The translations under genes were made by a program, and so were the position numbers. The notes under the pieces are model-generated. The model made no database searches. It saw only the letters and a program-made list of their open reading frames with translations, and had not been told where the DNA came from. From Escherichia phage phAPEC8, in the sequence record NC_020079.1: 64,000 bases of DNA; one strand, given 5' to 3'. Positions within the stretch are counted from its first letter, which is position 1; each line of letters opens with the position of its first letter. Of the stretch, positions 9,062 through 64,000 are shown in pieces.

Positions 9062-9397
9062 ATGGAATTTCAAGAAGCATGGGGACTTGCAAAGGATGCA
9101 ATAATCCCTTTAATCGGAGTCATCTGGTTCTTTTTCAAACAAAAAATGGATAAATTCGGCTCTGATCTTGAGGAAATGGAGGAGAAAAGTCGAGAGCTAG
9201 AGAAGAAGTTGGTCTTTGTTGAATCAACTTACGCAACTAAAGCCGAACTTACCCAGATGCTAAATCAAATTAACTCTACATTAATGGCAAATAACAACAC
9301 CCTTGAGCAAAAAATTGAAAAGATTATGGACCTCAAGAATGCGACTATCCAAATGATGCTAGATGACATAGTTAAACGTACACAGAATAAGGGGTAA
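9062..9397 (+). CDS. Small membrane-anchored coiled-coil protein
   Basis: 111 aa; N-terminal hydrophobic helix (IIPLIGVIWFFF) then charged coiled-coil. Confidence 0.35.
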   Translation: MEFQEAWGLAKDAIIPLIGVIWFFFKQKMDKFGSDLEEMEEKSRELEKKLVFVESTYATKAELTQMLNQINSTLMANNNTLEQKIEKIMDLKNATIQMMLDDIVKRTQNKG

Positions 9398-9400
9398 TTA

Positions 9401-12400
9401 ATGGCAACATTCCCAACATATCCAGCAACGTCTCTCGAACAGGGCGTAGACCTGGTTATTTTCTCATCTAACCAACTCCATGATGTTATTAATGGAAGTG
9501 CTACAGAGAGTATTGAAACAGAATCAGGGTTGATACCAACCCTGAGAAAAGCCCTTGTTGACAACTTTTTCTTTAAAAGTCCATTAGATTGGGCGCAAGG
9601 CACAAACGAAACAGTTTTTAACCAACTTCGTTATTTCCAGAACGGGGTGTTGAGTGGTTATTACTATGCGCCTAACGCTACACTGGTAAACCCAATTCCT
9701 ATGCAAGGGACTCCAGTAGGAGATAACAACTGGGTATTGTGGGGACTGAAGACAGAACAACTAGCAACAGAAGTCACCCCTTGGGTATATTCTGGTGCAA
9801 CTGGTTATGAAACAGTAATCAGTCCTCCCTACATCTTTGATAGTGCTATTGTTACGATCAATGGTGTTATTCAGGTTCTGGGAGAAGCTTTCCGCATAGA
9901 AGATAGTAAAATCATCTTATCTGAACCTTTGGGACACGATCCTGCAACAGGACTGCCAAACAAACTTTTTGCCTATATTGGTAAAATCGTAGCTTCCGCA
10001 GATACAGATCCTAACTTAGAAAACCGTCTTGTCAGTTTAGAAACAAAAACTGAAGAACTGACAGAAAGCATGGATAAAGTACCTTTACAAACTATTGCTC
10101 GTAAATACGGTTTGTTGGATGATGAAGTAGCTTACGCAACAGCGGGTCAATCGTTAACAGGGATTAAAGCTCTGTATGATCCAGTAGCACAATCTTCCTA
10201 CACATTGCCTCCTAACATCACAGGGACTTTAACATCCTTGTCTGTTTCTGGAGTAATGACTTATTCTGGCGGATCTGTAGATCTTTCTGCATTGGCTGTT
10301 GAACGTGGACAGTTTGTTCATTTGCCTACAAGCTTTGGTAATAACGTAACTCTGACAGCTAAAAATCAGACGATTGGACGTGGTGCTGGTCGTTATCGTT
10401 GGGCTGGGAGTTTACCAAAAAGTATTTTGGCCTCAGATACATTGGAGACAAGCGGTGGATTAGGTCCAAATGCATGGGTTCTGACCAATACAGAAGGACT
10501 GTTAACCCCTCGTGGTGGAACATACAACGATTTATTCGATGTTGTCTACTTATCAGAATTTGCTAACAACACAACAACATATACCACACCAGAAGCAGCT
10601 TTCCAAGCGGCACTGTTAGCAGCAAAAGCTTCGAAAAGCAAGATTCTCGATGCTTACGGTTGCGATATGACTTTCACGACAAGCTCTTTTGATATTCAAG
10701 GTATCACTTTGCGTGGGGGTGTGTTCCGTGGTCAACGCGACTATCGTGTGCAAAATGCTACAGTAGAAGGCACAACTTTCCGTAACTCTCGTGTTATGTA
10801 TTGGGGTGGTGCTGTGCGCATGTTCGATTGTTTGTGGGACGGTGCTCCTCGCGCAGGTCAAGTTGGTAGCTTGGTATTCCAAGGCAACCCAATATCAGGT
10901 ACTTTTGAAATTGATAACTGTACTTTTAAAAACGGGTTGTATGGCATCCTTCAACAAGGAACAGGGGAACCAGTAACACGTGGTGTCTTCCGTAACCTTA
11001 CCTTCATGGACATGCAAGGTGATGCAATAGAACTGAACGTCATCAATAAACATTATGACGATGGTTGTGTGATTGAGAATATTTACCTGTCTAATATCGA
11101 TGGGACTAACGCTCCTATTCCTCTGTCCAACTGGGGTATCGGTATCGGTGTAGCTGGTAAAGGACCATATGGTTACGGAATCCCTGATGATCAATATTGC
11201 AAGAATATTACAATTCGTAACGTTTTTGCAAAACGTTGTCGTCAGATTGTCCACGTAGAAGTTGGTCGTAATATCTCTATCGAAAACATTCATGGCGATC
11301 CAGACCAGACCGTATCTGTTGGGACAGGTTTGGCAACTGGCGCAGTTGTAATGTATGGAAGTAAAGATTTTACGATTGACGGTGTTTACGGAGAGCCTAA
11401 AACAGACGGTAGCACACTTGCAAGTAATATCCGTATGATTTATTTGGAGTGGGGAACTAACGCAGTTCTGGACGAAGAGGGTAATCCGGTAGTTCCGGCA
11501 CAGGGTAGACCTTCAAACCCATGCTTTAACTATTCTGTTCGTAATATTCACACCAAAACTGGGCGTGTTTTTGCAGGAGTTTCCGCTGGGCCAGGTTATG
11601 AAAACAGAGTTAGCTTTGAAAATATTCGTTGCGCTGCATTGCAGTTATTCGGTATAGCTTCTTGGCTTTCAATGTCTAACATCACCTGTAATATCTTCGA
11701 TTGTGTTGGTCAACCTGAATCTGGTCCAGGGACATTTTATGATGGATTCTTCCGTAGAGAAAAATCTGTTCTTGAAATGGTTAACGTGAACTGTTACCCA
11801 GATGGCAAGACGATGGTTACTGGTCGTCCACAGTGGAGCCGTTGCCGTTACTCGGATATTCATCGTGTCAATTGTAATGTTGAAGCTAATATGTATACCA
11901 ATATCGCAGGTGGTATTGGAGCTATTGTAGGGACAACGGGCAAAGTTTATTACTTAGAGCCTAATCCTAGTCGAAACATTGATGGAATGCATTTCCCAAC
12001 AGGGAAAGAGTTTGACAAAGGTGATATGATAGTCAAGGCGGATAATACGTTCTTCCTTGTAACAACAAGTGGGGCATATATTCCAGATATCCCAGCTTTC
12101 GGTATTCGAGCTACACAGGCAGGAGATACCTTCCTGACACAGAACTTGACTCCTAACGGGACAGCAACAAATGCTTCTTGGTTGTATCATTACCCTCTGT
12201 CAGCAGGGACACGTATCCGTATTCCTGGCGCTGGTGTAGGTGGAGCAGATTTGGACACAGTTATTACTCGTGCACCTTATCAAGATAATGATACGTGGAC
12301 TAACCCAGTTAAAATAGACATTGCAGATCCAATTGTAACGCCTACAAGTGCTGGAGTTAGAATTAAAACCATACCTAATGATTCCAGTAATGTTTCTGTA

Positions 12401-14582: not shown

Positions 14583-17258
14583 ATGTTTCCAATTCCAATA
14601 TTTACTATTATGACCAGCACTGGTGTCGTTCCTCTGCCAGCAGGTATTGTTAAAAAAGTAATCACTTTAGATTACCCAGATAATGCTGGTAATTCTAACA
14701 GCAGTTTAGCAATTTTGCTTAATGATGGTAGATTGTTTACTCAAGGCGCAAACCTTTTTGGTGAGATTGCAGATGGAACTCGTAGTGCACGATTCAATAA
14801 TTTCCACTTAGCTTCTACTGTAGTAGCGGATGTGTTTACCGCAGATCGTTGTTTTGTTATTAAAACTAACAGTGGGGGATGGCAATATTCAGGATTGACA
14901 GCAGGATTGGTAGGATCTATAGCAGCAGGTGGTACGGACGCATGTGTAACTACTTGGACCAGCTTTCCATCTGTAATAACAGGGACTATCTCTTTAGCCA
15001 ATCTTAAAGAGGTTAAGGGAGGATATAACAACACTCTCTGGTTAATGAATAGTGGTGTTCTTTACGGATCTGGTCAAAACACAGTAGGCAGTTTAGGTGC
15101 AAGTACTACTAACGAAGTTTCTACTCCTCGTCAGATAACAAGTGCAGCAGTTGCTTTTGATGCAGGTTACAACCAATGCTCTTATGTCAACAATGTGGGA
15201 ACCTTGCGTGTTTGTGGAGCTAGTAAAGGTTTAGCAGGTAATAATAACACAACAACAGCTTTTGTCAATGCCAAGATATCCGCTACTGAAACAGTGTATG
15301 TCAAAGATTACATCAATACAGTTTCCCAGACAATAGTTGTAGGAGATACCTCCGGTGGCACGGGTGCAGTAAACTACTTATATGTTAGATCTAATACAGA
15401 AACAACCTACACTAAACTGGATACCTTTGCAGCAGGTTTCTCAACATGGAAATTTCCACCAAGCCGCCACTCTTTTTTCGTTGGGATCAATAATTCCTTG
15501 TGGGCTATTGGTAAGAACTACACTGCAAACTTAGGTTTGGGGTATGATTCTGCGAGCGGAGATCCACTTCAAGTGGGAAAACCAGTTAAACCTGAAGGAG
15601 TGGGTTCCTGGGATATAAACAAGCTCACAAGCGTTCATACGCTGAATATGGATGTTACTAACCAATTAGGTTATCAAGGAACCTTTTTCGTTTATAATGG
15701 AGATATGTATTATTCCGGTATTTGGAAAGATGGAAAAGCCTCGTATCTGTTCAATAGTGGTCTAAACTATAATAAATTCACACCAATAGCAAGCTCCGTG
15801 ATTACGGGTGATATTCTGGCAACTGGCTTAACTACGGATTCTTTAGGAATTTGTATTGTAGGTGGAACTAAACAGTTGACACATTCTGTTAGCCCAGAAG
15901 GAGGTAAACTTTTCAATATTAAATATACTTCTTCTGCCCCTGCAAACATGACAATATCGTCTACTGGTTTAATGACTTTCCATGCAGAAGGTGGTTTTGA
16001 TGCAGGTATGACAGCCTTAAACGCTGAAGGAACAACTTTATCAGATACCTCTGGAGGATATGCTTCAACATTGAGTGTTTACACCCCTAGCTTATCTGCG
16101 ATGGATGTAGGAACAACACAAACAATGGTAGCAGAAATAACGCCAACAGGAGCAGCAAGCTTACCTGGCATGGTTGTTGAGTATTTCTCTAATGACCCTA
16201 CGGTAGCAACAGTTGACCCCGTTACAGGCGTTATTACAGCGGTTGCTGATGGAGGTTGTCGTATCGGTTGTAGAGCAACTTATCAAGGTGTGGTAACTGC
16301 CGAAGATAGTTCTTATCTCACAGTGAATGCTGTGGTGATTGTGATGGATTATGATTTGACGCAAGAAACTATTCCGGCGGATGTAAAGGTCAACAGGAGT
16401 AACCGTTATGCCAGGGCTTCTGGAGATATCCTTGTACCTACAGAGAGTTCTGCTCCCGTAGCACCTTTAGAATATGTTGGTACAACTCCACAAGGTAGAC
16501 GTGTTGTAGCAGCCAACCGTACACATATCTTTATCAACAATAACTTGACAACAGCTTCCCCGTGGTTGAAGACGAACTTGACAGTCACAGCATCAACAAT
16601 CAACTCTCCGGTTGGAACTACGGCTAACACTTACAAGTTAACACCTTCTACAACTTCAGGACAACATATTTTATCAGCAGTGAATACAGCTTCTGATATT
16701 ACAGCAGGTAAGCACTGGGCGGCATCCGTATTCTTGAAGCCAGATGGGATCACTAAAGTGAAACTCAAATTGACTTCAGGAGATGAGATTAACGAAGGGA
16801 CTTATGATCTTGTAGCTGGAACATTTACAGGTGCAGATGCAAACATAATCGATATGGGGAATGGTTGGTATCGTGTAATTCTACACAAAGTGACAGTTGC
16901 CAAACAAGCATCTATAACCTATGAGATTATAGCTTTGAATGCAAGTGGATCAGACACTTTCGCAGGAGATGGTACGGCAGGTCTTATTGCTTGGGTTCCA
17001 CAGCTTGAGATGGGGGATATGACAAATCCAGTTTGGGCGGGGACACCATTTGTTTGTTCTTATGCACGAGACACTACCAGTGCTGTTACCTTCACTATTC
17101 CTAAGAATGGACATACTGGCGTGGACATTTACCACACTGATGGTACTGTGCAACGAGAGGTCTTCACTGGTACAGCTACAACTTGGATGTTGACGTTCAC
17201 CGCCGCAAGTGCGGATTGGGGATCGAAGTTCATTACAGGTTTGAAATATTACGACTAA
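14583..17258 (+). CDS. Large virion protein with bacterial Ig-like domain(s)
   Basis: 891 aa; T/S/G-rich; segment MVVEYFSNDPTVATVDPVTGVITAVADGGCRIGCRATYQGVVTAEDSSYLTVNAV resembles a Big_2-type Ig-like fold. Confidence 0.45.
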   Translation: MFPIPIFTIMTSTGVVPLPAGIVKKVITLDYPDNAGNSNSSLAILLNDGRLFTQGANLFGEIADGTRSARFNNFHLASTVVADVFTADRCFVIKTNSGGWQYSGLTAGLVGSIAAGGTDACVTTWTSFPSVITGTISLANLKEVKGGYNNTLWLMNSGVLYGSGQNTVGSLGASTTNEVSTPRQITSAAVAFDAGYNQCSYVNNVGTLRVCGASKGLAGNNNTTTAFVNAKISATETVYVKDYINTVSQTIVVGDTSGGTGAVNYLYVRSNTETTYTKLDTFAAGFSTWKFPPSRHSFFVGINNSLWAIGKNYTANLGLGYDSASGDPLQVGKPVKPEGVGSWDINKLTSVHTLNMDVTNQLGYQGTFFVYNGDMYYSGIWKDGKASYLFNSGLNYNKFTPIASSVITGDILATGLTTDSLGICIVGGTKQLTHSVSPEGGKLFNIKYTSSAPANMTISSTGLMTFHAEGGFDAGMTALNAEGTTLSDTSGGYASTLSVYTPSLSAMDVGTTQTMVAEITPTGAASLPGMVVEYFSNDPTVATVDPVTGVITAVADGGCRIGCRATYQGVVTAEDSSYLTVNAVVIVMDYDLTQETIPADVKVNRSNRYARASGDILVPTESSAPVAPLEYVGTTPQGRRVVAANRTHIFINNNLTTASPWLKTNLTVTASTINSPVGTTANTYKLTPSTTSGQHILSAVNTASDITAGKHWAASVFLKPDGITKVKLKLTSGDEINEGTYDLVAGTFTGADANIIDMGNGWYRVILHKVTVAKQASITYEIIALNASGSDTFAGDGTAGLIAWVPQLEMGDMTNPVWAGTPFVCSYARDTTSAVTFTIPKNGHTGVDIYHTDGTVQREVFTGTATTWMLTFTAASADWGSKFITGLKYYD

Positions 17259-17321: not shown

Positions 17322-18209
17322 TTAGAATGGGATATCATCGTCGAAGTCCATTGGAGGTTCTTCTTGATTGCTTGGAGTTGGTTCTGGTTGTGGTTCAGGT
17401 TTCTTCTCTTCTTTCTTCTCTTCTTTCTTAGGTTGTTCTGCGGAACCACGAATGGCAGCAGCAACTTTATCAGACAGAGCCAGAACTTTACGAGCAGAGT
17501 CAATCAGATCTTCTACAGATACAGTCTTAATGGTATGGTCTTTACAAGCATTGAGAATAGCGTGACCAACAGATGCCCCAAGATCATAATCATTAATATC
17601 AACGCCACGAGATTCAGCAATTTCAGATTTCAGCGTGACAGTTGCAGATTGAACAACCCCAGCGATATCGAAAGCATCGCCTTTAACACCATTACGAATC
17701 AGTTCCAGTGCACCATTTACTGCGTGACCAGTTTCCAGACCTACAGTATCACGTTTTTTATAGGACTGCTTAGGAGCAGCATCGTTGGAACCTTTATTGC
17801 CAGAAGATTTGTTAGACTTCTGAACACCATCGGTAGACAATACTGTAATACGAGATTTTTTAGTATTGTAGTAAGTCTTACCGCCTTTATTATCAACGCG
17901 ATCAATATCAATACTTACTTCTACACCTTTTTCAATAGTGATCCAATTATCACCTTCTTTGACTTGCAGGTTTTCATAACCTTCTTTCAGTTCAATGTCA
18001 CCAAGAGAAATCCAAACACCTTTCTCATCTGGTTTAGCACCTTTCTCTTTCAGAACAAGAGAAGCTCGGTGAGTTGAAACAATCGTTTTCCCTTCCCAAT
18101 GAAAAGTTTTAGGTTCAGCGAATTTATCCAGTTTAACGTAGTCTACGATACCAGTTGCATAAGTTACGGTTTTGCCTTTACGATCAGTTTCAGTATTAAT
18201 TACGGACAT
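17322..18209 (-). CDS. ssDNA-binding protein candidate with acidic C-terminal tail
   Basis: 295 aa; Lys/Glu/Pro-rich linker then C-terminus MDFDDDIPF identical in character to the bacterial SSB tail tip; adjacent to replication genes. Confidence 0.5.
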   Translation of the reverse strand: MSVINTETDRKGKTVTYATGIVDYVKLDKFAEPKTFHWEGKTIVSTHRASLVLKEKGAKPDEKGVWISLGDIELKEGYENLQVKEGDNWITIEKGVEVSIDIDRVDNKGGKTYYNTKKSRITVLSTDGVQKSNKSSGNKGSNDAAPKQSYKKRDTVGLETGHAVNGALELIRNGVKGDAFDIAGVVQSATVTLKSEIAESRGVDINDYDLGASVGHAILNACKDHTIKTVSVEDLIDSARKVLALSDKVAAAIRGSAEQPKKEEKKEEKKPEPQPEPTPSNQEEPPMDFDDDIPF

Positions 18210-18225
18210 TATTATCTCCTCTACA

Positions 18226-18618
18226 TTACATTAATTTTGCACAGAAAGAGCGGAGTCTTTCCATATCATCTTGCTCTAACAGGTATTTACCTTTACCTAT
18301 TCCAACTCCAATTTCACCATTAGGAAAATGAACTATTTGCACTGGGAAACCTCCGAGTTTAATTGTGGCAGCTTTGCCTTCTTCGTCTATAACGTTTCGG
18401 ATTGTATCTTGCAGTGAAATGAATTCTTTGTTTGTAACAGTGGTTTCAATTATTTCAGATGTTTCGACACGAGCAGTTAGCTTCTTGTTTCCACCTTGAA
18501 TAACCAAAATTTGAAAATAAAAAGAGTTGTCAAGACCTACAACATTTTTCTCAACTAGTGTCAAACTGGTATAGTTTCCATAAACAGTTTCAACAGCTAT
18601 CTTAGAACGTTCAGTCAT
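18226..18618 (-). CDS. Hypothetical protein
   Basis: 130 aa ORF, compact operon context. Confidence 0.35.
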   Translation of the reverse strand: MTERSKIAVETVYGNYTSLTLVEKNVVGLDNSFYFQILVIQGGNKKLTARVETSEIIETTVTNKEFISLQDTIRNVIDEEGKAATIKLGGFPVQIVHFPNGEIGVGIGKGKYLLEQDDMERLRSFCAKLM

Positions 18619-48371: not shown

Positions 48372-48679
48372 TCTTTTCTAGCCCAAGCTACGGCTGCTAC
48401 CAATACATCTCCATGACAAGGTTGAGGTGAGCAGTAGCAAACTAAATCTTTCCCTTCTAACTCTAATAAATCTTCAAGAGTGATCTTACCACAACGAATT
48501 TGCTCCCACAACCACTCTTTATACCTTTGTATGGTTGATCCTCGTGGTTCATCATCTTTTAACTTAAAAGGATTTGCAAACTTAGAGGCTTTTAGTCCCA
48601 TATGTGGCATTGCTCTACCAATATAAACAGCACCCTCTGGGATTGTTTTGCCTAAATGGTAAAAGTTTAATACCTTCAT
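48311..48679 (-). CDS. Conserved phage protein with CxC...CHG motif (DUF4326-like)
   Basis: 122 aa; LVCYCSPQPCHGDVL. Confidence 0.35.
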   Translation of the reverse strand: MKVLNFYHLGKTIPEGAVYIGRAMPHMGLKASKFANPFKLKDDEPRGSTIQRYKEWLWEQIRCGKITLEDLLELEGKDLVCYCSPQPCHGDVLVAAVAWARKEWDKRHPTYVDNYWIWEENF

Positions 48680-56482: not shown

Positions 56483-57667
56483 ATGGCAGCACCAAAATCA
56501 TGGGAACAATATAAAGAAGAGTGTCAACCAATAGCAGAGAGTAAGCAAATCCAAATCTTAGGATGGACGGGAGAATGGAAAGGGGTTAATACAAAACTTG
56601 ATTTGTTGTGTCATTGTGGTTATAAATGGGATACTACAAGTATTAACAGTTTTAAACGTGGTGGTGGTTGTCCTATGTGTGCAGGTCAAATTAAAGATTT
56701 AAAAACATACCTTACTGAATGTAAACCAATAGCGGAAGCTAAGGGGATTACCATCATAGGTATCGTAGAACCGTTTAAAGGTGCGCGTACGAAAATGATG
56801 CTACGTTGTAGGTATGGTCATGAATGGAATACATGCAGTTTTGATAGTTTTAAACATGGCAGTGGTTGTCTTATATGTAGGTATGAGAACACAAGGAGGT
56901 CACAAACAATACCAGACGATCAACATATTGCAGATTTCTTTTCTACAGGGAAGTTTAAGGAAGGTACTATTTTCACCAATACGGGGGAACGTAAAGGGTG
57001 TGATCCAATATGGATGGTTCAGTGTCCTGTTTGTTCTCATGATGAATATGTTAAAGCTGGACTATGTGATGGTAAGTTTTATATGACGCGTAGCAATCTT
57101 AAATATGGACACTTACCCTGCCGTTGCTCTGCATCTTATAGGTATACAGCGGAACAGATTACGTATAAAGTAAGAAAGAAAATAGAAAAGAAAGGGTATG
57201 TTTGGATAGGATGGATTACCAAACCATCTTCTATAGGTAAGTTTAAATATGTATGTAAGAGTCATGGGGAACAAAAAGGAACTGCAAACAACCTTTTAAA
57301 CATAGGACAAGGTTGTCCGCAGTGTGCTAACAAAAATCAACAACAAGCCTACATTAATTATATTTACGATGAGCAAGATATTCTCTGTGCACTGAAGTTT
57401 GGTATTGCTAATAATAGTAATCGCCGTATCAAAGAACAAAATAGTCGTAATGTGTTTACTATGAAACAGGGTCAAGTGTGGCACTTCCCTACTGTGAAGC
57501 AATGCAAAGATGCAGAAAAGCGTTGTAAGCGTGTCCTTCACACGGAAGCAGTGAGCAAATATTCTATGCCAGATGGCTACACAGAGACAGTAGAGTTATC
57601 TTGCATGGCCTCAATACAAAACATTTATAAACTTTATGGTGGAATATTACAGGAGGAAACATGTTAG
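56483..57667 (+). CDS. Tandem zinc-ribbon repeat protein, possible nuclease-like C-terminus
   Basis: 394 aa; four ~55 aa repeats each ending in a CxxC knuckle (GCPMCAGQ, GCLICRYE, CPVCSHDE, GCPQCANK); C-terminal YINYIYDEQD...KFGIANNSNRR weakly GIY-YIG-like. Confidence 0.4.
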   Translation: MAAPKSWEQYKEECQPIAESKQIQILGWTGEWKGVNTKLDLLCHCGYKWDTTSINSFKRGGGCPMCAGQIKDLKTYLTECKPIAEAKGITIIGIVEPFKGARTKMMLRCRYGHEWNTCSFDSFKHGSGCLICRYENTRRSQTIPDDQHIADFFSTGKFKEGTIFTNTGERKGCDPIWMVQCPVCSHDEYVKAGLCDGKFYMTRSNLKYGHLPCRCSASYRYTAEQITYKVRKKIEKKGYVWIGWITKPSSIGKFKYVCKSHGEQKGTANNLLNIGQGCPQCANKNQQQAYINYIYDEQDILCALKFGIANNSNRRIKEQNSRNVFTMKQGQVWHFPTVKQCKDAEKRCKRVLHTEAVSKYSMPDGYTETVELSCMASIQNIYKLYGGILQEETC

Positions 57668-58039: not shown

Positions 58040-58228
58040 ATGGCACGTTTAGCAGATCATGAAATCTTTAAACCTATTCTGAACCACTATGATGAACTTA
58101 AAGCAGTGTTGGATTGTTATAGAGAGGATGAAGAACGTTTGGAAGTCAATCTTAAGATAGTTCTGATGAAAGCTTTTCAAGACGGGCAAGCTAAAGTTTT
58201 AGAAGGCATGAAAAATGAGAATAACTGA
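58040..58228 (+). CDS. Small hypothetical protein
   Basis: Start at ATG behind AGGAGA. Confidence 0.3.
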   Translation: MARLADHEIFKPILNHYDELKAVLDCYREDEERLEVNLKIVLMKAFQDGQAKVLEGMKNENN

Positions 58229-58757
58229 TGAATATGTATTCTTCTTTTCACATAAAGATGTGTTTAGTAATTGGTATATTGCACCCTTTACAGAAACTGA
58301 ACCAGGTTACAATCAGACATTTAATTGTGTCGAACAATACATGATGTGGCGTAAAGCTTTGCTTTTTAATGATCACAACACTGCACAGGCTATTCTGACT
58401 CATAGTTTGATACGGAAAGATGAGAAGATCCAAGCTTATTACAAACGTATGGGTAGGGCAGTGTCAGATTTTGATAACAACGTATGGGAAGAGAACCGTG
58501 AGCGTATTGTTATGCGAGGTTTATGCTTGAAATATGTACAGAATCCAGATTTGTATGCAGACTTACACCTTTACCAATACAAAACGTTTGTTGAAGCAAG
58601 TCCTTACGATAAGGTTTACGGTATTGGAATGGGAATGTATGAACCAGGGGTGCTAAATCCGGTCAACTGGAAAGGGCAAAATCTTTTAGGTAAATATCAT
58701 AACAAACTGATCGAAATACTTTTCCCAGACAAAATACCGCAAAGACGATATTTGTGA
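58215..58757 (+). CDS. NADAR (YbiA-like, DUF1768) domain protein
   Basis: 180 aa; YVFFFSHKDVFSNWYIAPF, FNCVEQYMMWRKALLFND, GQNLLGKYHNKLIEIL match conserved NADAR blocks. Confidence 0.55.
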   Translation: MRITDEYVFFFSHKDVFSNWYIAPFTETEPGYNQTFNCVEQYMMWRKALLFNDHNTAQAILTHSLIRKDEKIQAYYKRMGRAVSDFDNNVWEENRERIVMRGLCLKYVQNPDLYADLHLYQYKTFVEASPYDKVYGIGMGMYEPGVLNPVNWKGQNLLGKYHNKLIEILFPDKIPQRRYL

Positions 58758-58812
58758 TATTTTAACTTTTTTCATTTTTAGAACAAAGGTGTCACTTTGT
58801 AGCACAGAAATA

Positions 58813-58848
58813 AGGCTCCTACAGCACCGTAGAGAGCCTGTTATTTTG
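58813..58848 (+). terminator. Rho-independent terminator ending the + strand block
   Basis: AGGCTCCTAC...GTAGAGAGCCT stem followed by GTTATTTTGT. Confidence 0.5.
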
Positions 58849-59000
58849 TCCTATACAAACCCTTATCTTTTTCAGTTTGCATCACTAGGATTCGATCTAA
58901 GTGGGTTCCTGAAGGTTTACCAATAAGATTAAAGGTTATCTCAAATTCCCACTACCTATTATCTCAAAAATCCCTCAAATTATTTAAACTTTTTAAGAAT

Positions 59001-59047
59001 TTACAAAAGTGAAAGTTGAAAACCAAAATTTAAAGTTTAGGAAAATT
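59001..59047. repeat. AT-rich direct repeat, copy 1
   Basis: ttacaaaagtgaaagttgaaaaccaaaatttaaagtttaggaaaatt; about 75% identical to the copy at 59139-59186. Confidence 0.5.
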
Positions 59048-59138
59048 ATCTTAAAATGTTAGATACAAAACAAAACTCAAAAGTCAAGGAAAATTTTAAA
59101 AATTTTGCGCGCCCACAGTATTTAAAGTTTTTTTGCTT

Positions 59139-59186
59139 TTACAAAAATGAAAGTACAAAAGCAAAATTTAAAGTTTACAAAAATTT
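59139..59186. repeat. AT-rich direct repeat, copy 2
   Basis: tttacaaaaatgaaagtacaaaagcaaaatttaaagtttacaaaaatt. Confidence 0.5.
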
Positions 59187-59223
59187 ATGCAGGTGGGAAT
59201 GAGAAGAGTTCTCATGTGGAAAT

Positions 59224-59242
59224 GCAAATGATAATGATTCGC
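59224..59242. promoter_or_regulatory. Fur-box-like palindrome 1
   Basis: gcAAATGATAATGATTcgc; 14/19 to consensus GATAATGATAATCATTATC. Confidence 0.35.
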
Positions 59243-59281
59243 ATTTAAGTTTATAAATGAGATTGATTCTTATTCAATAAG

Positions 59282-59300
59282 GTAAATGATAATCATTCTC
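59282..59300. promoter_or_regulatory. Fur-box-like palindrome 2
   Basis: gtAAATGATAATCATTctc; core AATGATAATCATT perfect, 17/19 to consensus. Confidence 0.45.
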
Positions 59301-59531
59301 ATTTAGAGAATGACGCGCAGGGGTGGTGTTTGTCTCGCGCTCCCGTGTCCCCTCGCCATGTAATAAGAATAACAGATCCAACCAGGAAAGCAAGCGATTA
59401 TTTTATCTTTACATTTCTTTACAAATATATAGCGCCCAGCCTACCGGCGATCAACCTTCCAACCAGTGCCCCTGGTATGTTAGCCCCGCCTTTACGCCGT
59501 GGGGTGGCGCTTCCTCTTCTGTATGTAAAAC

Positions 59532-59560
59532 AGTATAAGCCCGATCCCTGGGCTTGTCAA
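59532..59560 (-). promoter_or_regulatory. Strong sigma70-like promoter on - strand facing the GC-rich non-coding segment
   Basis: - strand TTGACA-N17-TATACT; the same DNA on + strand forms hairpin AAGCCC..GGGCTT followed by a T-rich run. Confidence 0.4.
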
Positions 59561-59562
59561 TA

Positions 59563-59829
59563 TTATTTTTTGTTTTCTTGCCAGGATAGGACACCTAACC
59601 AAAAATGCATGTCGCCCCGCGCCCCTGGTGGGATCTTGCTTTCCCCGCCGCCACTGCAAGCCCATAAATAACCATCAGCGAACGGATCAAAATTTTCTAT
59701 TTCTTCCACCTTATGATCGCCCAGGTTGAGAACTGTTTCAACCTTTAAGCCCGTTGCGCTTGCTACCTGGTGCACCGTGCCGCCTTGCCAGCCCAATGAG
59801 TGCATAAGGTGTAATGTAGTATTTGTCAT
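59563..59829 (-). CDS. Hypothetical protein with high-GC, host-like composition
   Basis: 88 aa ORF; GC-rich codons unlike neighbours; upstream TTGCTA-N17-TATTAT. Confidence 0.4.
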   Translation of the reverse strand: MTNTTLHLMHSLGWQGGTVHQVASATGLKVETVLNLGDHKVEEIENFDPFADGYLWACSGGGESKIPPGARGDMHFWLGVLSWQENKK

Positions 59830-60016: not shown

Positions 60017-60214
60017 ATGGCAACATTGCACATTGTGGCGAAAGCTGGACAAATCAACGTAATAGTAAACGGTTTTACTGAGTTCAGTCATCCCCAGGAT
60101 GATCATGAAACGGTTTTATCTTTCATTGATTCCCTGTTAGAAATGGGAGTAATTACAGAAGACCAGCACGCTACAAAATGCAAACGCGTTAATCAAATTG
60201 CAGGAATAGAATAA
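60017..60214 (+). CDS. Early small protein
   Basis: 65 aa; RBS GGAG. Confidence 0.45.
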   Translation: MATLHIVAKAGQINVIVNGFTEFSHPQDDHETVLSFIDSLLEMGVITEDQHATKCKRVNQIAGIE

Positions 60215-60220
60215 AAAGTA

Positions 60221-60282
60221 TTGACAACAAACAACAACCTGATAAGATGTACCACATAGGGCGGCGGAATGGTCCACCGCTC
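60221..60282 (+). promoter_or_regulatory. Promoter-hairpin cassette 2
   Basis: TTGACA-N16-TAAGAT then GGGCGGCGGAATGGTCCACCGCTC. Confidence 0.55.
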
Positions 60283-60304
60283 ACAACAGAAGAGAGAAAT
60301 CATC

Positions 60305-60577
60305 ATGGCATCATATAGCGCAACAATGATCGTAGTCGGCACCACTGGTAAACCTATGAGCGGTGGCGGATCTTTCGCAAATATCAACATTGACGGGCGT
60401 TTATCCCTGGACGCAGCGATCACCGTGGCGCGGGAAACATTTAAGAAAGAATGTAAATTCAATAAACAAGATTATCTCGGTTTCGCTATTGAAAAAACCG
60501 CGCGTTTTGTTGATTATAAAAGCCCAAAAATGGTTGATACTACACTAAAAGCGCAAGATGTAGCGTTTTTGCTTTAA
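60305..60577 (+). CDS. Early small protein
   Basis: Start at ATG (MASYSAT) behind AGAAGAGAGA; the longer track ORF begins inside the hairpin. Confidence 0.45.
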   Translation: MASYSATMIVVGTTGKPMSGGGSFANINIDGRLSLDAAITVARETFKKECKFNKQDYLGFAIEKTARFVDYKSPKMVDTTLKAQDVAFLL

Positions 60578-60580
60578 GGC

Positions 60581-60635
60581 TTGACATTAACGAATAATTT
60601 GTTAATATGTTACATAAAGCGGGAATAGTTCCCGC
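60581..60635 (+). promoter_or_regulatory. Promoter-hairpin cassette 3
   Basis: TTGACA-N16-TAATAT then GCGGGAATAGTTCCCGC. Confidence 0.55.
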
Positions 60636-60653
60636 TATTTGTAAGGTGGTAGA

Positions 60654-60911
60654 ATGTTTTACATCAAATTAAAAGGTCACGTGATCGCGTTCAAAGATAA
60701 CGCTTTTTACAGATTAGCAAAATATGCGTTAATACATCCCCACTATGTTTATATAAGGGGGCGTGATGAAATAAATATCTTTGATCAAACAACATGCGAA
60801 AACATCGAGATCCGCAAGGTTGGCGTACGTGATTATCGTACATCTTTCTACCCTTGCAAGGATTCAGCAAGTCTTTTTAAAGTATGCCAATTGTTGAAAA
60901 AAGGTGGTTAA
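60654..60911 (+). CDS. Early small protein
   Basis: 85 aa; RBS AAGGTGG. Confidence 0.45.
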   Translation: MFYIKLKGHVIAFKDNAFYRLAKYALIHPHYVYIRGRDEINIFDQTTCENIEIRKVGVRDYRTSFYPCKDSASLFKVCQLLKKGG

Positions 60912-60912
60912 T

Positions 60913-61470
60913 ATGGGCCGCGAATATGTGATCCAGTCTTGGGTAAAACATGAAGCAGATGATCCGCGCATCATTCCCGATCATCTTATCGATGAATCCA
61001 CGGGATATAGCGGTGAGCAAATAGGTAACAGATTAGCACGTAGTAACGGCAACGTAAAAGCGCGTTATGTGCGCCCTGGCTGGCTGGCAAATGGTAACGC
61101 TGATTTATCCAGTGCGGAAGATGCGAGCGACGGCGCGAAAGATAATCCTTTGTACAAAGTTGATCCGGCTTTTCGTGTCCTAGATGAATACCCCAGCAAG
61201 ATAGCGGCGCTTGATGAAGCATTGGAAAGTAAGCGCATCACCTGGACCGCTTACAACATGGCAAAAAACGTACTTGATGGTAAATTGATTCAAGCTGAAA
61301 GAAAATTAGCCAAAATTGCAGCCATAGCCCAGGAGGAAGACGAGGAGACAACGGAAGAGGAAGAGTACGAAGAGATCCCGCCGTTGTTGTGTGTTGATGC
61401 TTTTCCTGATTATCAGCCGACAGAGGAAGAAAAAAGGATCGCACTAGAAAACTTTGAAAATAGTCTTTGA
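60913..61470 (+). CDS. Early protein with acidic C-terminal region
   Basis: Start at ATG (MGREYV) behind AAGGTGG; EEDEETTEEEEYEE stretch. Confidence 0.4.
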   Translation: MGREYVIQSWVKHEADDPRIIPDHLIDESTGYSGEQIGNRLARSNGNVKARYVRPGWLANGNADLSSAEDASDGAKDNPLYKVDPAFRVLDEYPSKIAALDEALESKRITWTAYNMAKNVLDGKLIQAERKLAKIAAIAQEEDEETTEEEEYEEIPPLLCVDAFPDYQPTEEEKRIALENFENSL

Positions 61471-61525
61471 CATATCGCCGCCACTGGCATAATATTTACC
61501 ACGTAGGGCGGCAATGGTGCCGCTC
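61467..61525 (+). promoter_or_regulatory. Promoter-hairpin cassette 4
   Basis: TTGACA-N17-TAATAT then GGGCGGCAATGGTGCCGCTC. Confidence 0.55.
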
Positions 61526-61552
61526 ATAGTGAAATTATGCAAGAGGCTTACA

Positions 61553-61660
61553 ATGATTAATAAAGGAAATAGCTTGACAGTTGGAACGATTAACGCTATC
61601 ATCTTAGTCGTTCCATTCTGGATCACCGTGGCAGTTATCGCAACAATCATTTTCAAGTAA
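61553..61660 (+). CDS. Small hydrophobic peptide (35 aa, not in ORF track)
   Basis: MINKGNSLTVGTINAIILVVPFWITVAVIATIIFK; first ORF after cassette 4. Confidence 0.3.
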   Translation: MINKGNSLTVGTINAIILVVPFWITVAVIATIIFK

Positions 61661-61670
61661 GGGGCACACC

Positions 61671-61862
61671 ATGTTTAAAAATATCACTGGCAACGTAGCA
61701 ACATTGAAAGCAGGCGACAAAGTAGAATTGCACCGGATCACAATGACAGTAGCGCACGTCGAGAAAGTGCCACCGCATCACCGCAAGATCTCGCTAATGT
61801 GCGACAAAGGGCGCAACATTACCGCCACACTGCACGAAAAAGATAACGTAGTCATTTTGTAA
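61671..61862 (+). CDS. Early small protein
   Basis: 63 aa; RBS AAGGGG. Confidence 0.4.
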   Translation: MFKNITGNVATLKAGDKVELHRITMTVAHVEKVPPHHRKISLMCDKGRNITATLHEKDNVVIL

Positions 61863-61872
61863 GGTGGACACT

Positions 61873-62154
61873 ATGAGCAAGGTAATTAACTATAAAGAGT
61901 TAAGCCCTACCCTTTCAATGAGTGAATGTACCGATGGGTATTGGCTGTATGATGAAACGCGCGGCATGAATTTAGCAATGCAAGCGAAAACCGAACAAGC
62001 GGCATATGTGCAAGCCCTGGAATATTACCAGCGACGACTACAGGAAGTCGAAAGCAATTATAAAAGCCTGAAATCAAAGGTTGATCACTTTATCAACCAG
62101 GTAGCAGATGACGATGATGATCACTACTGCGAACGATGCGGATCATATAGTTAA
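61873..62154 (+). CDS. Early small protein
   Basis: Start at ATG (MSKVINYK) behind AAGGTGG. Confidence 0.4.
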   Translation: MSKVINYKELSPTLSMSECTDGYWLYDETRGMNLAMQAKTEQAAYVQALEYYQRRLQEVESNYKSLKSKVDHFINQVADDDDDHYCERCGSYS

Positions 62155-62162
62155 AAATATCT

Positions 62163-62224
62163 TTGACAACGTTTAAAATTAGTGTAAGATGTATCACATA
62201 GAGCGGCGGAATGGTTTCCCGCTC
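62163..62224 (+). promoter_or_regulatory. Promoter-hairpin cassette 5
   Basis: TTGACA-N16-TAAGAT then GAGCGGCGGAATGGTTTCCCGCTC. Confidence 0.55.
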
Positions 62225-62245
62225 ACAACAGAGAGATTAAAGATT

Positions 62246-62473
62246 ATGGCTATCAATATTGTTCGCGTATCCGGTACCGTTGGTAACTCCCAGGTTGTAG
62301 CAGTTATCACAGAGAAGAAAGGGGATGATCTTCACTCTTCCTTGAATAGCTGGGCGGTCGCTAACTTCGGGCAATGGTCGAGCGTTGAGTACATCGAATC
62401 CTACCAGGTGCCGACGATTAGCCTAACCGATCTCAACGTTGATCGCTTGTTGTGCCTGGATGAATTAATCTGA
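62246..62473 (+). CDS. Early small protein
   Basis: Start at ATG (MAINIV) after purine-rich RBS; the track ORF start at 62189 lies in the hairpin. Confidence 0.45.
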   Translation: MAINIVRVSGTVGNSQVVAVITEKKGDDLHSSLNSWAVANFGQWSSVEYIESYQVPTISLTDLNVDRLLCLDELI

Positions 62474-62483
62474 AAAAAGATTG

Positions 62484-62541
62484 TTGACACCGGAAAGAAA
62501 AAGAGTAGAATATATTACATAGGGCGGCAATGGTGCCGCTC
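62484..62541 (+). promoter_or_regulatory. Promoter-hairpin cassette 6
   Basis: TTGACA-N16-TAGAAT then GGGCGGCAATGGTGCCGCTC. Confidence 0.55.
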
Positions 62542-62564
62542 ACAACAGAAGAGAGATTATCACG

Positions 62565-62780
62565 ATGGCTAATATCCGCACTTTACTGAAAAATGCAAGT
62601 CAAGTTTTATTTTCAGATGACGAGTATTTCAATAAAGACATTACAGGCGTGAAAAATTTAAAAGACGTGAAGGATGTTATCGGTATCCGTGGATCTTTAC
62701 GTAAGGGCGATTACTACGGTAACAAGGTGCAATATAAACTGTCAAAGGATTACAATTTTACTTTGACAATTATTTCATAA
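62565..62780 (+). CDS. Early small protein
   Basis: 71 aa ORF. Confidence 0.45.
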   Translation: MANIRTLLKNASQVLFSDDEYFNKDITGVKNLKDVKDVIGIRGSLRKGDYYGNKVQYKLSKDYNFTLTIIS

Positions 62781-62786
62781 AACCGC

Positions 62787-62846
62787 TTGCAATACTGCAA
62801 AAATAAAGTAAACTATATTCATCAAGGCGGGGAATGGTCCGCCGCC
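62787..62846 (+). promoter_or_regulatory. Promoter-hairpin cassette 7
   Basis: TTGCAA-N16-TAAACT then GGCGGGGAATGGTCCGCCGCC. Confidence 0.45.
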
Positions 62847-62870
62847 TAACAAAGAGAAGAGGAAAATATC

Positions 62871-63038
62871 ATGATCACTTTCGCTACCCGTGAAGCCGCT
62901 CGCAACGTTGCACGTAAAGTTAACGCCGCCAACCTGGGCGCTACACTTAAAGCCCCGGTAAAAGATGAATCAGGAAAATGGATCTTCCCTGGTTTGCGTC
63001 ACGCTGACAAGTTAGGTACTTTAAGCCTTAAAAAATAA
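62871..63038 (+). CDS. Early small basic protein (55 aa, not in ORF track)
   Basis: MITFATREAARNVARKVNAANLGATLK...; first 15 nt identical to the gene at 63113. Confidence 0.35.
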   Translation: MITFATREAARNVARKVNAANLGATLKAPVKDESGKWIFPGLRHADKLGTLSLKK

Positions 63039-63041
63039 TCG

Positions 63042-63078
63042 TTGACTTTTCGTTATAGCGCCTTATAATGGGCGCTAT
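63042..63078 (+). promoter_or_regulatory. Promoter with palindrome overlapping the -10 (cassette 8, variant)
   Basis: TTGACT-N16-TATAAT embedded in ATAGCGCC-ttataatg-GGCGCTAT. Confidence 0.5.
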
Positions 63079-63112
63079 AGAGAAGAGAAACCACTACTAA
63101 CAAGGAAACATC

Positions 63113-63334
63113 ATGATCACTTTCGCTATTGTCGCCGTTGTCGCTGGTCAAGTTTACGTAAATGAGACATTTACTACAGAAGACAAGGCGGCAGGAGATA
63201 TAACCGCCGTTTACAACGAGTGCAAGGCAGTAGAAAGGATGTTAGCGCCTTGTATGCTAATGAGTGAACGCCAGGACGGGATAACAGTATTTACTAACAT
63301 TGAAACAGGGTACCAAATGGTAGTAACAAAATAA
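63113..63334 (+). CDS. Early small protein, N-terminally hydrophobic
   Basis: 73 aa; MITFAIVAVVAGQVYV. Confidence 0.4.
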   Translation: MITFAIVAVVAGQVYVNETFTTEDKAAGDITAVYNECKAVERMLAPCMLMSERQDGITVFTNIETGYQMVVTK

Positions 63335-63337
63335 AGC

Positions 63338-63394
63338 TTGACACGGATTTAATTTTCAGTAAACTGTTACACGTAGGGCGGGAATAGTTCCCGC
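63338..63394 (+). promoter_or_regulatory. Promoter-hairpin cassette 9
   Basis: TTGACA-N16-TAAACT then GGGCGGGAATAGTTCCCGC. Confidence 0.55.
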
Positions 63395-63412
63395 TAAAAA
63401 GAGAGAAAGACC

Positions 63413-63766
63413 ATGAAAGCACAAAATGCAATTAAAGAGTACATCCTTGCCGCTATCGATTTTAATGATCACGGTATTACAACCGAAAAAGAGAAGATCG
63501 CGGAATTGATGCGCCGTTTTAATTCCGAGTACTGGTACCCTGATAACCAATCACGTTTTAATTATAGTATTGTTAAAGCACTTGCATCATGGTTACAAGG
63601 TTTGCCATCAGATATCAATATCGCTTTCGAATATTGGGAAATTGATCGCTTGTTAACATCCTGGGGATACATTAAAGAGAATAGCAACGATGATAAAATC
63701 CAACGAGAAAGGGAAAATTATTGGCTTTATATTGCAGGCGTGATCCTTGCTTGCTCTTATGAATGA
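63413..63766 (+). CDS. Early protein
   Basis: 117 aa; RBS AGAGAGAAAGA. Confidence 0.45.
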   Translation: MKAQNAIKEYILAAIDFNDHGITTEKEKIAELMRRFNSEYWYPDNQSRFNYSIVKALASWLQGLPSDINIAFEYWEIDRLLTSWGYIKENSNDDKIQRERENYWLYIAGVILACSYE

Positions 63767-63772
63767 TAAACC

Positions 63773-63826
63773 TTGACAATTTTACAAAACAGTTTAAATT
63801 AACAATATAGCGGCAATGGTGCCGCT
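63773..63826 (+). promoter_or_regulatory. Promoter-hairpin cassette 10
   Basis: TTGACA-N16-TAAATT then AGCGGCAATGGTGCCGCT. Confidence 0.5.
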
Positions 63827-63845
63827 CATATGAAGAGGAAACAAA

Positions 63846-63992
63846 ATGAATACATCTGATCGCGCAGAAAAAATTCAATCTTCCAAGATCCGCAAGGCCT
63901 GGAACGAGGAAGTGATCCGCAAAGGCGACAAGCGCAATAAAACAAAGCGCGGGAAGAGTGACAAATATAATTGGATGGATTTAGAGGATTAA
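63846..63992 (+). CDS. Early small basic protein (48 aa, not in ORF track)
   Basis: MNTSDRAEKIQSSKIRKAWNEEVIRKGDKRNK...; RBS GAGGAAA. Confidence 0.35.
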   Translation: MNTSDRAEKIQSSKIRKAWNEEVIRKGDKRNKTKRGKSDKYNWMDLED

Positions 63993-64000
63993 CATAACAA

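Follow-up and report, generated by a model that had tools for sequence, protein, structure and literature searches.

A phased array of predicted Fur boxes in a non-coding island of Escherichia phage phAPEC8

Fur boxes are textbook elements. The chromosomal Fur operators of Escherichia coli (E. coli), such as those of ryhB, fecI, entC-fepB, fepA-fes and sufA, consist of a 19-bp inverted repeat with 9-1-9 symmetry and of partner sites that overlap it at an offset of 6 bp, and they overlap the sigma-70 promoters of iron genes. In Shiga-toxin prophages, the stx1 promoter is repressed by Fur, so that a box carried by the phage makes one of its transcripts respond to iron. At ftnA, Fur boxes arranged in tandem upstream of the gene counter silencing by H-NS. 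The 9-1-9 register is that of the single-dimer model of Fur sites, while the 6-bp offset is the signature of two-dimer sites (Chen et al. 2007, PMC2189734). Here, we describe an array of four predicted Fur boxes in Escherichia phage phAPEC8 (NC_020079.1). The whole stretch of DNA that was analysed, 64,000 nucleotides long, is hereafter referred to as the window, and the array occupies its positions 59198-59303. In the literature searched, a conserved, strictly phased array of several boxes on the DNA of a lytic phage was not found described.

The array shares with the chromosomal operators the 19-bp repeat, its register and the 6-bp overlapping partners, and the matrix scores of its boxes are comparable to or higher than those of the E. 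coli operators. The host operators differ in lying over promoters and in lacking the 29-bp lattice of the array. Furthermore, stx1 has one operator over the promoter of one cargo gene, whereas the window array has no such promoter or cargo gene. The ftnA locus resembles the array in that several Fur sites are located upstream of a promoter and not on it, in AT-rich DNA. As a host precedent it was rejected, its upstream region having only weak matches and no 29-bp array.

The boxes and their match to host Fur operators

The array comprises four 19-bp 9-1-9 inverted repeats with the consensus AATGAGAATnATTCTCATT, which start at 59198, 59227, 59256 and 59285. The period is exactly 29 bp and the total length is 106 bp. 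In every box, 7-8 of the 9 pairs are symmetric. Boxes 2 and 4 are each overlapped by a weaker partner site that starts 6 bp upstream (59221/59227 and 59279/59285), and these pairs reproduce the geometry of the two-dimer Fur sites in PMC2189734. The predicted sites are listed below, with scores under a matrix derived from E. coli sites only, which is described further on.

59198-59216, unstranded: Fur box 1 (predicted), AATGAGAAGAGTTCTCATG, the weakest; 3 mismatches to the array consensus, 7 of 9 symmetric pairs, 11.3 bits; includes 59199-59215
59221-59239, unstranded: partner of box 2 (predicted), AATGCAAATGATAATGATT; 19.4 bits
59227-59245, unstranded: Fur box 2 (predicted), AATGATAATGATTCGCATT; 25.3 bits
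59256-59274, unstranded: Fur box 3 (predicted), AATGAGATTGATTCTTATT; 20.8 bits
59279-59297, unstranded: partner of box 4 (predicted); 16.7 bits
59285-59303, unstranded: Fur box 4 (predicted), AATGATAATCATTCTCATT, the strongest; 28.2 bits, the top match in the window

The three 10-bp spacers between the boxes have unrelated sequences, so that the even spacing does not stem from a recent tandem duplication.

A sequence-only reading of this DNA had pointed out two Fur-box-like 19-mers, at 59224-59242 and 59282-59300, and a perfect palindrome, ATGAGAAGAGTTCTCAT, at 59199-59215, and had suggested that they put a neighbouring transcript under iron-responsive control or titrate a host regulator. Both 19-mers are located where they were reported, and the core AATGATAATCATT of the second is intact. 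The match of the second to the classical 19-mer, given as 17/19, is in fact 16/19 (GTAAATGATAATCATTCTC compared with GATAATGATAATCATTATC), and 59224-59242 matches at 14/19. The site at 59282-59300 is the sole match with at most 3 mismatches in the window, where 0.01 would be expected. The palindrome is not perfect, since its 7-nt arms flank a non-symmetric GAG and 14 of its 17 positions are self-complementary. The box at 59256-59274 and the common 9-1-9 repeat with its 29-bp period had been overlooked, and the register was shifted by 3 bp. The true register lies 3 bp to the right, where the two boxes score 25.3 and 28.2 bits under the E. coli Fur matrix, compared with -14 and -10 bits in the register noted earlier. 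The array itself is real and stronger than first noted.

The identity of the boxes was examined by position-weight-matrix scoring in both directions. A symmetrised, phage-only matrix of 22.9 bits was made from 41 distinct copies of the motif, collected in the window and in ten further phages, and it was scanned over four 50-kb stretches of E. coli K-12 MG1655 (200 kb). Each of the top 14 matches falls in the promoter region of a known Fur target, and these regions constitute ~1% of the scanned sequence; the targets include ryhB, fecI, sufA, entC, ydhY, fepB, fepA-fes, fecA, fepD-entS, ydiE, yrhB and feoA. The best scores are those of ryhB (27.4 bits, AATAATAATCATTCTCATT) and fecI (24.6 bits). 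Chen et al. 2007 (PMC2189734) tabulated DNase I footprints and site coordinates, and the centres of the matches fall on these once genome-version offsets of +777 and +1977 are applied.

The E. coli-only matrix is a palindromic 19-mer model that received no phage sequence; it was trained de novo on nine footprint or promoter segments of E. coli, and its consensus is AATGATAATCATTATCATT. Its five best matches across the window are all within the array. At a threshold of at least 18 bits the window has 4 sites, all in the array, compared with 0.2 expected from shuffled sequence, and at a threshold of at least 20 bits it has 3, compared with 0.04. At least 25 bits are reached by two sites in the window and by one in 200 kb of E. 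coli. Chance is excluded as the source of the resemblance between the array and Fur sites. The identification as Fur boxes in the earlier reading is strongly supported by this scoring, as the phage and E. coli matrices each retrieve the sites of the other and nothing else. Judged by sequence, the boxes are Fur boxes that match the best host operators in strength, and the three strong ones equal or exceed the best chromosomal sites. Fur very probably binds the array.

Conservation among phages and the injection stop signal of T5

The region around the array is 97-99% identical to the genomes of Phapecoctavirus members of the Stephanstirmvirinae (ESCO5, ESCO13 and vB_EcoM_ASO2A). Across two subfamilies the position of the array is kept, while the spacers and the copy number vary. 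The boxes and their 29-bp spacing are retained, with diverged spacers, in Phapecoctavirus, Justusliebigvirus, a Klebsiella phage of the Stephanstirmvirinae, rV5, CR9, POP18, Mydo and PVP-SE1. There are 4 boxes in Justusliebigvirus VEcB and in the Klebsiella phage, 2+1 in rV5, 4 in Cronobacter CR9, 3 in Pectobacterium POP18 and 2 in Proteus Mydo; Salmonella PVP-SE1 has a single perfect AATGAGAATCATTCTCATT. Spacing played no part in the selection of the loci found by BLAST; in these, primary sites are separated by 30 gaps, of which 13 measure exactly 29 bp and most of the others measure 29±6 bp or multiples of 29. When all consecutive sites in the phage arrays are considered, the commonest gap is 6 bp (23 cases).

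An array pattern search, in which two boxes 29 bp apart were required, was carried out on a viral-contig collection and on 298 Gb of bacterial and archaeal genomes. The viral collection yielded 57 stretches, 43 of which have at least three primary sites. The bacterial and archaeal genomes yielded 36, and five of these have at least three sites, three of the five being phage contigs binned into metagenome-assembled genomes (MAGs). The carriers among the 57 viral stretches include T5-like phages, Vequintavirinae, Stephanstirmvirinae, Rak2-like jumbo phages of Salmonella and Klebsiella, and Shewanella phages 1/4 and 1/40. About 20 of the 57 have little or no similarity to reference phages, and some are bracketed by DnaA boxes (L060 and L061). 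By sequence, this type of array is shared by several unrelated families of lytic phages that infect Enterobacterales and their relatives. Chromosomes use Fur boxes yet essentially never in the 29-bp layout; the phased array is a phage invention. The strict and essentially phage-specific phasing speaks less for a simple operator than for a complex of Fur and DNA of higher order.

The three array-bearing MAG contigs, NYTN01000042.1 (labelled 'Rhodobiaceae MAG', L116), L109 and L105, match an IMG/VR contig (L048) at 100%, a Stephanstirmvirinae locus at 93% and a T5-like locus at 88%, respectively. They are viral contigs that were mis-binned into bacterial MAGs.

Several arrays are found near genome or record ends. 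The array of the Klebsiella jumbo phage fENko-Kae01 lies within an annotated direct terminal repeat (DTR), and those of Shewanella phages 1/4 and 1/40 lie at the record ends. In Justusliebigvirus BME3 (PP239276), a 342-bp repeat annotated as a DTR contains two strong predicted Fur boxes, and each of these is overlapped by a partner at an offset of 6 bp. Box and partner together span 17222-17246, 17417-17441, 18083-18107 and 18278-18302, the two DTR copies being 861 bp apart in the record. Two other candidates for termini were rejected. The ETEC-TG record is circular and merely breaks in the island, and the 148-bp end overlap of phiWec187 is in coding sequence and resembles an assembly overlap.

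The window array also gave BLAST matches of 75-87% over 55-95 bp in T5-like siphoviruses, whose terminal repeat has at its inner end a large non-coding stretch that is filled by the motif. In T5 (NC_005859), the E. coli Fur model predicts sites at 9552, 9587, 9610, 9656 (28.2 bits), 9691 and 9697, all of them inside the annotated 'injection stop signal (iss)', 9140-10149. The shear point of first-step transfer, which was estimated at ~9618 (Davison 2020, bioRxiv 10.1101/866236), falls within the array, and its neighbours are the major nick and one box each for DnaA and LexA. Judging from their listed position, the repeats of the T5 array appear to be the DRC/palE-palJ elements of Davison, whose only speculation on their role is that the A1 protein cleaves there (10.1101/866236). 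That paper mentions neither LexA nor Fur, and Fur is likewise not mentioned in T5 papers from 2023 and 2026. Full-text literature searches gave nothing that links Fur to these phages or elements, and searches on Fur with phage DNA and on Vequintavirinae transcriptomes gave nothing relevant.

Repeat Region 3 of the T5 iss resembles the window in having several phased copies of the same motif, with 29/35-bp spacing and 6-bp overlaps, and in being part of a large non-coding island that borders a block of small early genes. The T5 array is part of a terminal repeat of 10 kb and is accompanied by paired DnaA boxes, by nine GTCGGATTTGCACA (DRD) repeats and by a LexA box; the companion elements of this type of signal include a DRE repeat that bears a LexA-box-like palindrome. 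The 64-kb window has no match to the DnaA box (TTATCCACA) or to the LexA box, and no DRD repeat GTCGGATTTGCACA was seen in its island. In iss regions of the T5 type, a perfect LexA-box-like palindrome, CTGTATAAATATACAG / CTGTATATTTATACAG, stands beside the DnaA box or boxes and the array. These palindrome and DnaA sites are at 9411-9426 and 9510-9518 in T5 (NC_005859), and at ~2864 and ~2964 (L003) and ~2826 (L005) in T5-type loci. Such an island thus combines sites for three host DNA-binding proteins.

Lambdoid phages carry a box next to cos. In lambda (NC_001416), the predicted Fur box GATGATAATCATTATCACT at 48450-48468 (20.7 bits) is located 34 bp from the right cohesive end, just left of the sequence GGGTCCT, which we take to be cosQ. 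The DLP12 prophage of MG1655 has a box of 23 bits at the equivalent place (3092-3110 of the excerpt), upstream of nohD/nohB, and this box corresponds to the 'nohB' cluster of PMC2189734. The Qin nohA site is listed there as gel-shifted by Fur (Chen et al. 2007, Table 4). The lambdoid site, which lies in a control region close to a genome end, resembles the window array as a strong Fur box in non-coding phage DNA; it differs in being a single box and in belonging to a temperate phage.

The control island and the possible role of the array

The array sits in a gap of ~800 bp without annotated genes (58758-59562). The left part of the gap, 58758-59197, is AT-rich with local direct repeats (29% GC), the array itself has 26% GC, and the right part, 59304-59562, has 50% GC. 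The island was aligned in 13 phages from two subfamilies, and its features in the window, with the neighbouring genes, are as follows.

58215-58757, plus strand: left neighbour, gene for a NADAR-domain protein (Pfam E-value 2e-35)
58976-59185, unstranded: AT-rich repeat region left of the array, ~25% GC, with two 72-nt direct repeats (58976-59047 and 59114-59185) and no open reading frames (ORFs) of note
59306-59311, plus strand: -10-like hexamer GAGAAT directly after box 4, in a conserved column (CAGAAT/GAGAAT/CTGAAT)
59393-59388 (-35) and 59371-59366 (-10), minus strand: promoter P2 (predicted), TTGCTT-16-TATTCT, firing toward the array, which lies at ~+55 to +160
59425-59406, minus strand: invariant A/T-rich element TTTGTAAAGAAATGTAAAGA, which precedes P2 and is unique in the window
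59430-59520, minus strand: nearly invariant GC-rich block of ~90 nt (ACGCCACCCCACGGCGAAAAGGCGGGGCTAAC…GGAAGGTGGATCGCCGGTAG) downstream of P1
59560-59532, minus strand: promoter P1 (predicted), TTGACA-17-TATACT, 11/12 match, firing toward the array
59563-59829, minus strand: right neighbour, a lone ORF of 88 amino acids

Both predicted promoters are conserved. P1 appears in the relatives as TTGACA/TTGACG/TTGCAA with TATACT/TAAACT/CATAAT/TATATT, and its spacer in the window contains the bidirectional terminator hairpin (59535-59557) of the 88-residue minus-strand ORF. In P2 the -35 element (TTGCAA/TTGATC/TTGCTT), the 16-17 nt distance and the -10 element (TATATT/TATTAT/TATTCT) are kept though the spacer sequence diverges. 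Downstream of P2 there is a GC-rich, hairpin-prone segment, which is followed by the boxes; beyond these no ORF is present, only the AT-rich repeats and the terminator that ends the converging operon upstream. No good sigma-70 promoter overlaps any box in the window: P1 and P2 are upstream and aimed at the array, and the only promoter-like element at the boxes is the weak -10-like GAGAAT that follows box 4. In Vequintavirinae, a TTGAAT is found 18 bp before CAGAAT and the last box occupies the spacer. The -35 counterpart in the window is degenerate (GTAAAT), and a promoter scan gave no promoter there. The GAGAAT element may represent a weak rightward promoter that Fur would occlude.

We propose that the Fur-bound array acts as an iron-dependent barrier or operator for host polymerase in this early control island. 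In an iron-replete cell, metal-loaded Fur dimers would cooperatively cover the ~106 bp and form a protein barrier in the non-coding island. This barrier would stop or repress host RNA polymerase arriving from P1 and P2, ~55-160 bp upstream of the array. On iron starvation, Fur would turn into apo-Fur and the barrier would open, and transcription across the island would thereby respond to iron. The conserved P1 and P2 that are aimed at the array, and the TTGAAT and CAGAAT that bracket the last box in Vequintavirinae, are consistent with such a role. Several points weigh against it. The rightward -35 element is degenerate in the window, and no ORF of the window is under obvious control of the boxes in either direction. 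The arrays of T5 and of several unclassified viral contigs are off promoters, 100-250 bp away or in terminal repeats. Bacterial chromosomes show essentially no such strict 29-bp phasing, which argues that these arrays are not ordinary operators. Finally, it is not obvious what would be gained from a barrier that gives way when iron is limiting. On balance, we hold the proposal as a whole to be about evenly poised between right and wrong; the barrier or operator function taken alone, which we infer, is put forward tentatively.

A different role for the same Fur-bound DNA is that of a genome landmark. The phased array, together with other host-factor sites in some phages, would build a nucleoprotein complex that marks a cis locus for DNA entry, genome ends, packaging or replication, and promoter control would not be its main purpose. 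The T5 iss, for which such a role is assumed, holds the same array with the shear point ~9618 inside it. Arrays in terminal repeats or at record ends (fENko-Kae01, Shewanella phages 1/4 and 1/40), the two strong boxes in the annotated DTR of BME3 and the strong box 34 bp from the right cos end of lambda, at the same place in DLP12, all point in this direction, as do the DnaA boxes that flank the arrays of L060 and L061 and the fact that the phasing is specific to phages. In the window, the array adjoins AT-rich, iteron-like repeats with promoters directed at them, which is an origin-like arrangement; however, the island has no GC-skew switch and lacks the DnaA box, the LexA box and the DRD repeat of T5. 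Neither Stephanstirmvirinae nor Vequintavirinae are known to inject their DNA in two steps, the physical ends of this Phapecoctavirus-like phage lie outside the window and the records of relatives gave no reliable termini against which to place the array, and a cytoplasmic protein on DNA that has already entered has no obvious means of halting entry. We therefore regard a landmark role as unlikely, though worth keeping in view. Less probable still is a role as a decoy, in which the array, amplified by phage replication, would titrate holo-Fur and derepress iron uptake and other Fur-controlled genes, supplying iron, for example, for an iron-dependent ribonucleotide reductase. The sites have a very high predicted affinity and no tie to a promoter, their overlapping, phased layout would favour cooperative loading, and the phages in which the arrays are conserved are large and lytic and reach a high copy number by replication. 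Multicopy Fur boxes derepress Fur-controlled reporters, as in the Fur titration assay, which speaks for a decoy. A cell has thousands of Fur molecules, and 4-9 sites per genome would rival this pool only late in infection. Moreover, a sponge needs neither exact phasing nor a fixed placement by conserved promoters or in terminal repeats, and T5 degrades host DNA within minutes, so that derepression of the host would be pointless there.

The remaining two explanations dispense with Fur, and both are unlikely. The boxes could be the target of some other protein that shares the specificity of Fur, encoded either by the phage or by the host, in which case the likeness to Fur boxes would be mimicry or coincidence. 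This reading draws on the flanking small ORFs of unknown function and on position 6 of the motif, where the phage consensus favours G (GAGAAT, 60%) and the E. coli sites favour T (GATAAT, 59%). However, GAGAAT/ATTCTC half-sites are also found in the strongest host operators, ryhB, fecI and feoA, and the motif is common to phage families that share no detectable flanking protein, including Shewanella and jumbo phages. A tblastn search of the window with an E. coli Fur query gave no Fur homologue at an E-value of at most 1, and no flanking protein is common to T5-like phages and the window, the array itself being the sole tblastx match. A host factor is therefore the economical binder. ArgR does not fit by geometry: ARG boxes are 18-bp even palindromes with a 21-bp period. 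They were rejected because their best matches have at least 4 mismatches and because the boxes here are 19 bp long with a 29-bp period, in contrast to 18-bp TGAAT-N4-ATTCA pairs 21 bp apart. A binder other than Fur is accordingly very improbable in our view. The other explanation places the function in the RNA, with the palindromes acting as hairpins or terminators of the leftward transcripts from P1 and P2. A scan found a terminator-like minus-strand hairpin (59314-59292) that overlaps box 4, and the consensus fold puts a small hairpin on the box. The stems are AT-rich, however, with loops of 1-5 nt, and the U-tract is inconsistent in the relatives; an RNA-level role would also leave unexplained the match to Fur operators, the 29-bp lattice and the arrays of T5, which lack such promoters. 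We consider it scarcely credible.

A broader proposal would be that phased Fur-box arrays are a general device of large lytic phages that has so far gone unrecognised, in which the abundant Fur of the host builds a defined complex on first-entering or end-proximal DNA. In T5, Fur would be the missing host component of the iss and first-step transfer would depend on fur and on iron, and the island of rV5- and phAPEC8-like phages would be the same device. We rate this proposal as a long shot. If it were true, rV5- and phAPEC8-like myoviruses would also start infection in a staged or iron-gated manner. The finding makes testable a question that recent T5 papers leave open, namely what halts T5 DNA at 8%. 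It also suggests that many coliphages of the therapeutic type (Phapecoctavirus, Vequintavirus and Tequintavirus) read or exploit the iron status of the host; since iron is limiting at infection sites, this may be relevant to phage therapy.

Other features of the island, neighbouring genes and related records

The GC-rich block downstream of P1 is near-invariant across Stephanstirmvirinae and most Vequintavirinae, and it is a candidate for a non-coding RNA or a protein-binding DNA. It has no Rfam or tRNA match, and the tRNA and Rfam scans of the whole island likewise gave no match. Its consensus fold is modest (-18.6), with one compensatory pair (ACCAG/CUGGU compared with ACCUGG/CUAGGU). Calling it an RNA gene was rejected, as a single clearly compensatory pair is insufficient. 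In rV5 (rV5_ev156, 2012-2300), a module composed of a Fur box and a GC-rich GGTGnTTGTCTCC element is present in two copies, and the phage lacks the conserved P1 block, which indicates that the island is modular.

The AT-rich region left of the array also has 33-nt direct repeats (59016-59048, 59064-59096 and 59154-59186), and its repeats carry the iteron-like sub-repeats TTATTTAAAGTTTTT and CAAAATTTAAAGT. Diverged equivalents of these repeats are present in VEcB and in the Klebsiella relative. The possibility that the repeat words are phage promoters used genome-wide was rejected, as the words are confined to the island.

According to Pfam and PHROGs, the neighbouring ORFs belong to families of unknown function, with the exception of one NADAR domain and one CapR/HNH endonuclease. 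The ORF at 58215-58757 has the NADAR domain, yet several GenBank relatives label it 'GTP cyclohydrolase II'. On the plus strand, 56483-57667 encodes a protein of 394 amino acids with four stretches of CapR homology and a treble-clef zinc finger, which belongs to the endonuclease/HNH family of PHROGs and is probably a homing-type endonuclease. The length of this gene differs among relatives, being 1461 nt in ASO2A and ESCO13.

Several records named 'Campylobacter phage' or 'Acinetobacter phage' (MG065650.1 and others) are 97-99% identical to Phapecoctavirus of E. coli, and their host labels are probably wrong or reflect contamination. In the annotation of ASO2A, the segment 5520-9125 downstream of the island, which corresponds to window positions ~60200-64000, repeats a 'promoter-hairpin-gene' unit, in which nearly every small early ORF has a sigma-70-like promoter of its own and the promoter is followed directly by a hairpin annotated as a terminator.

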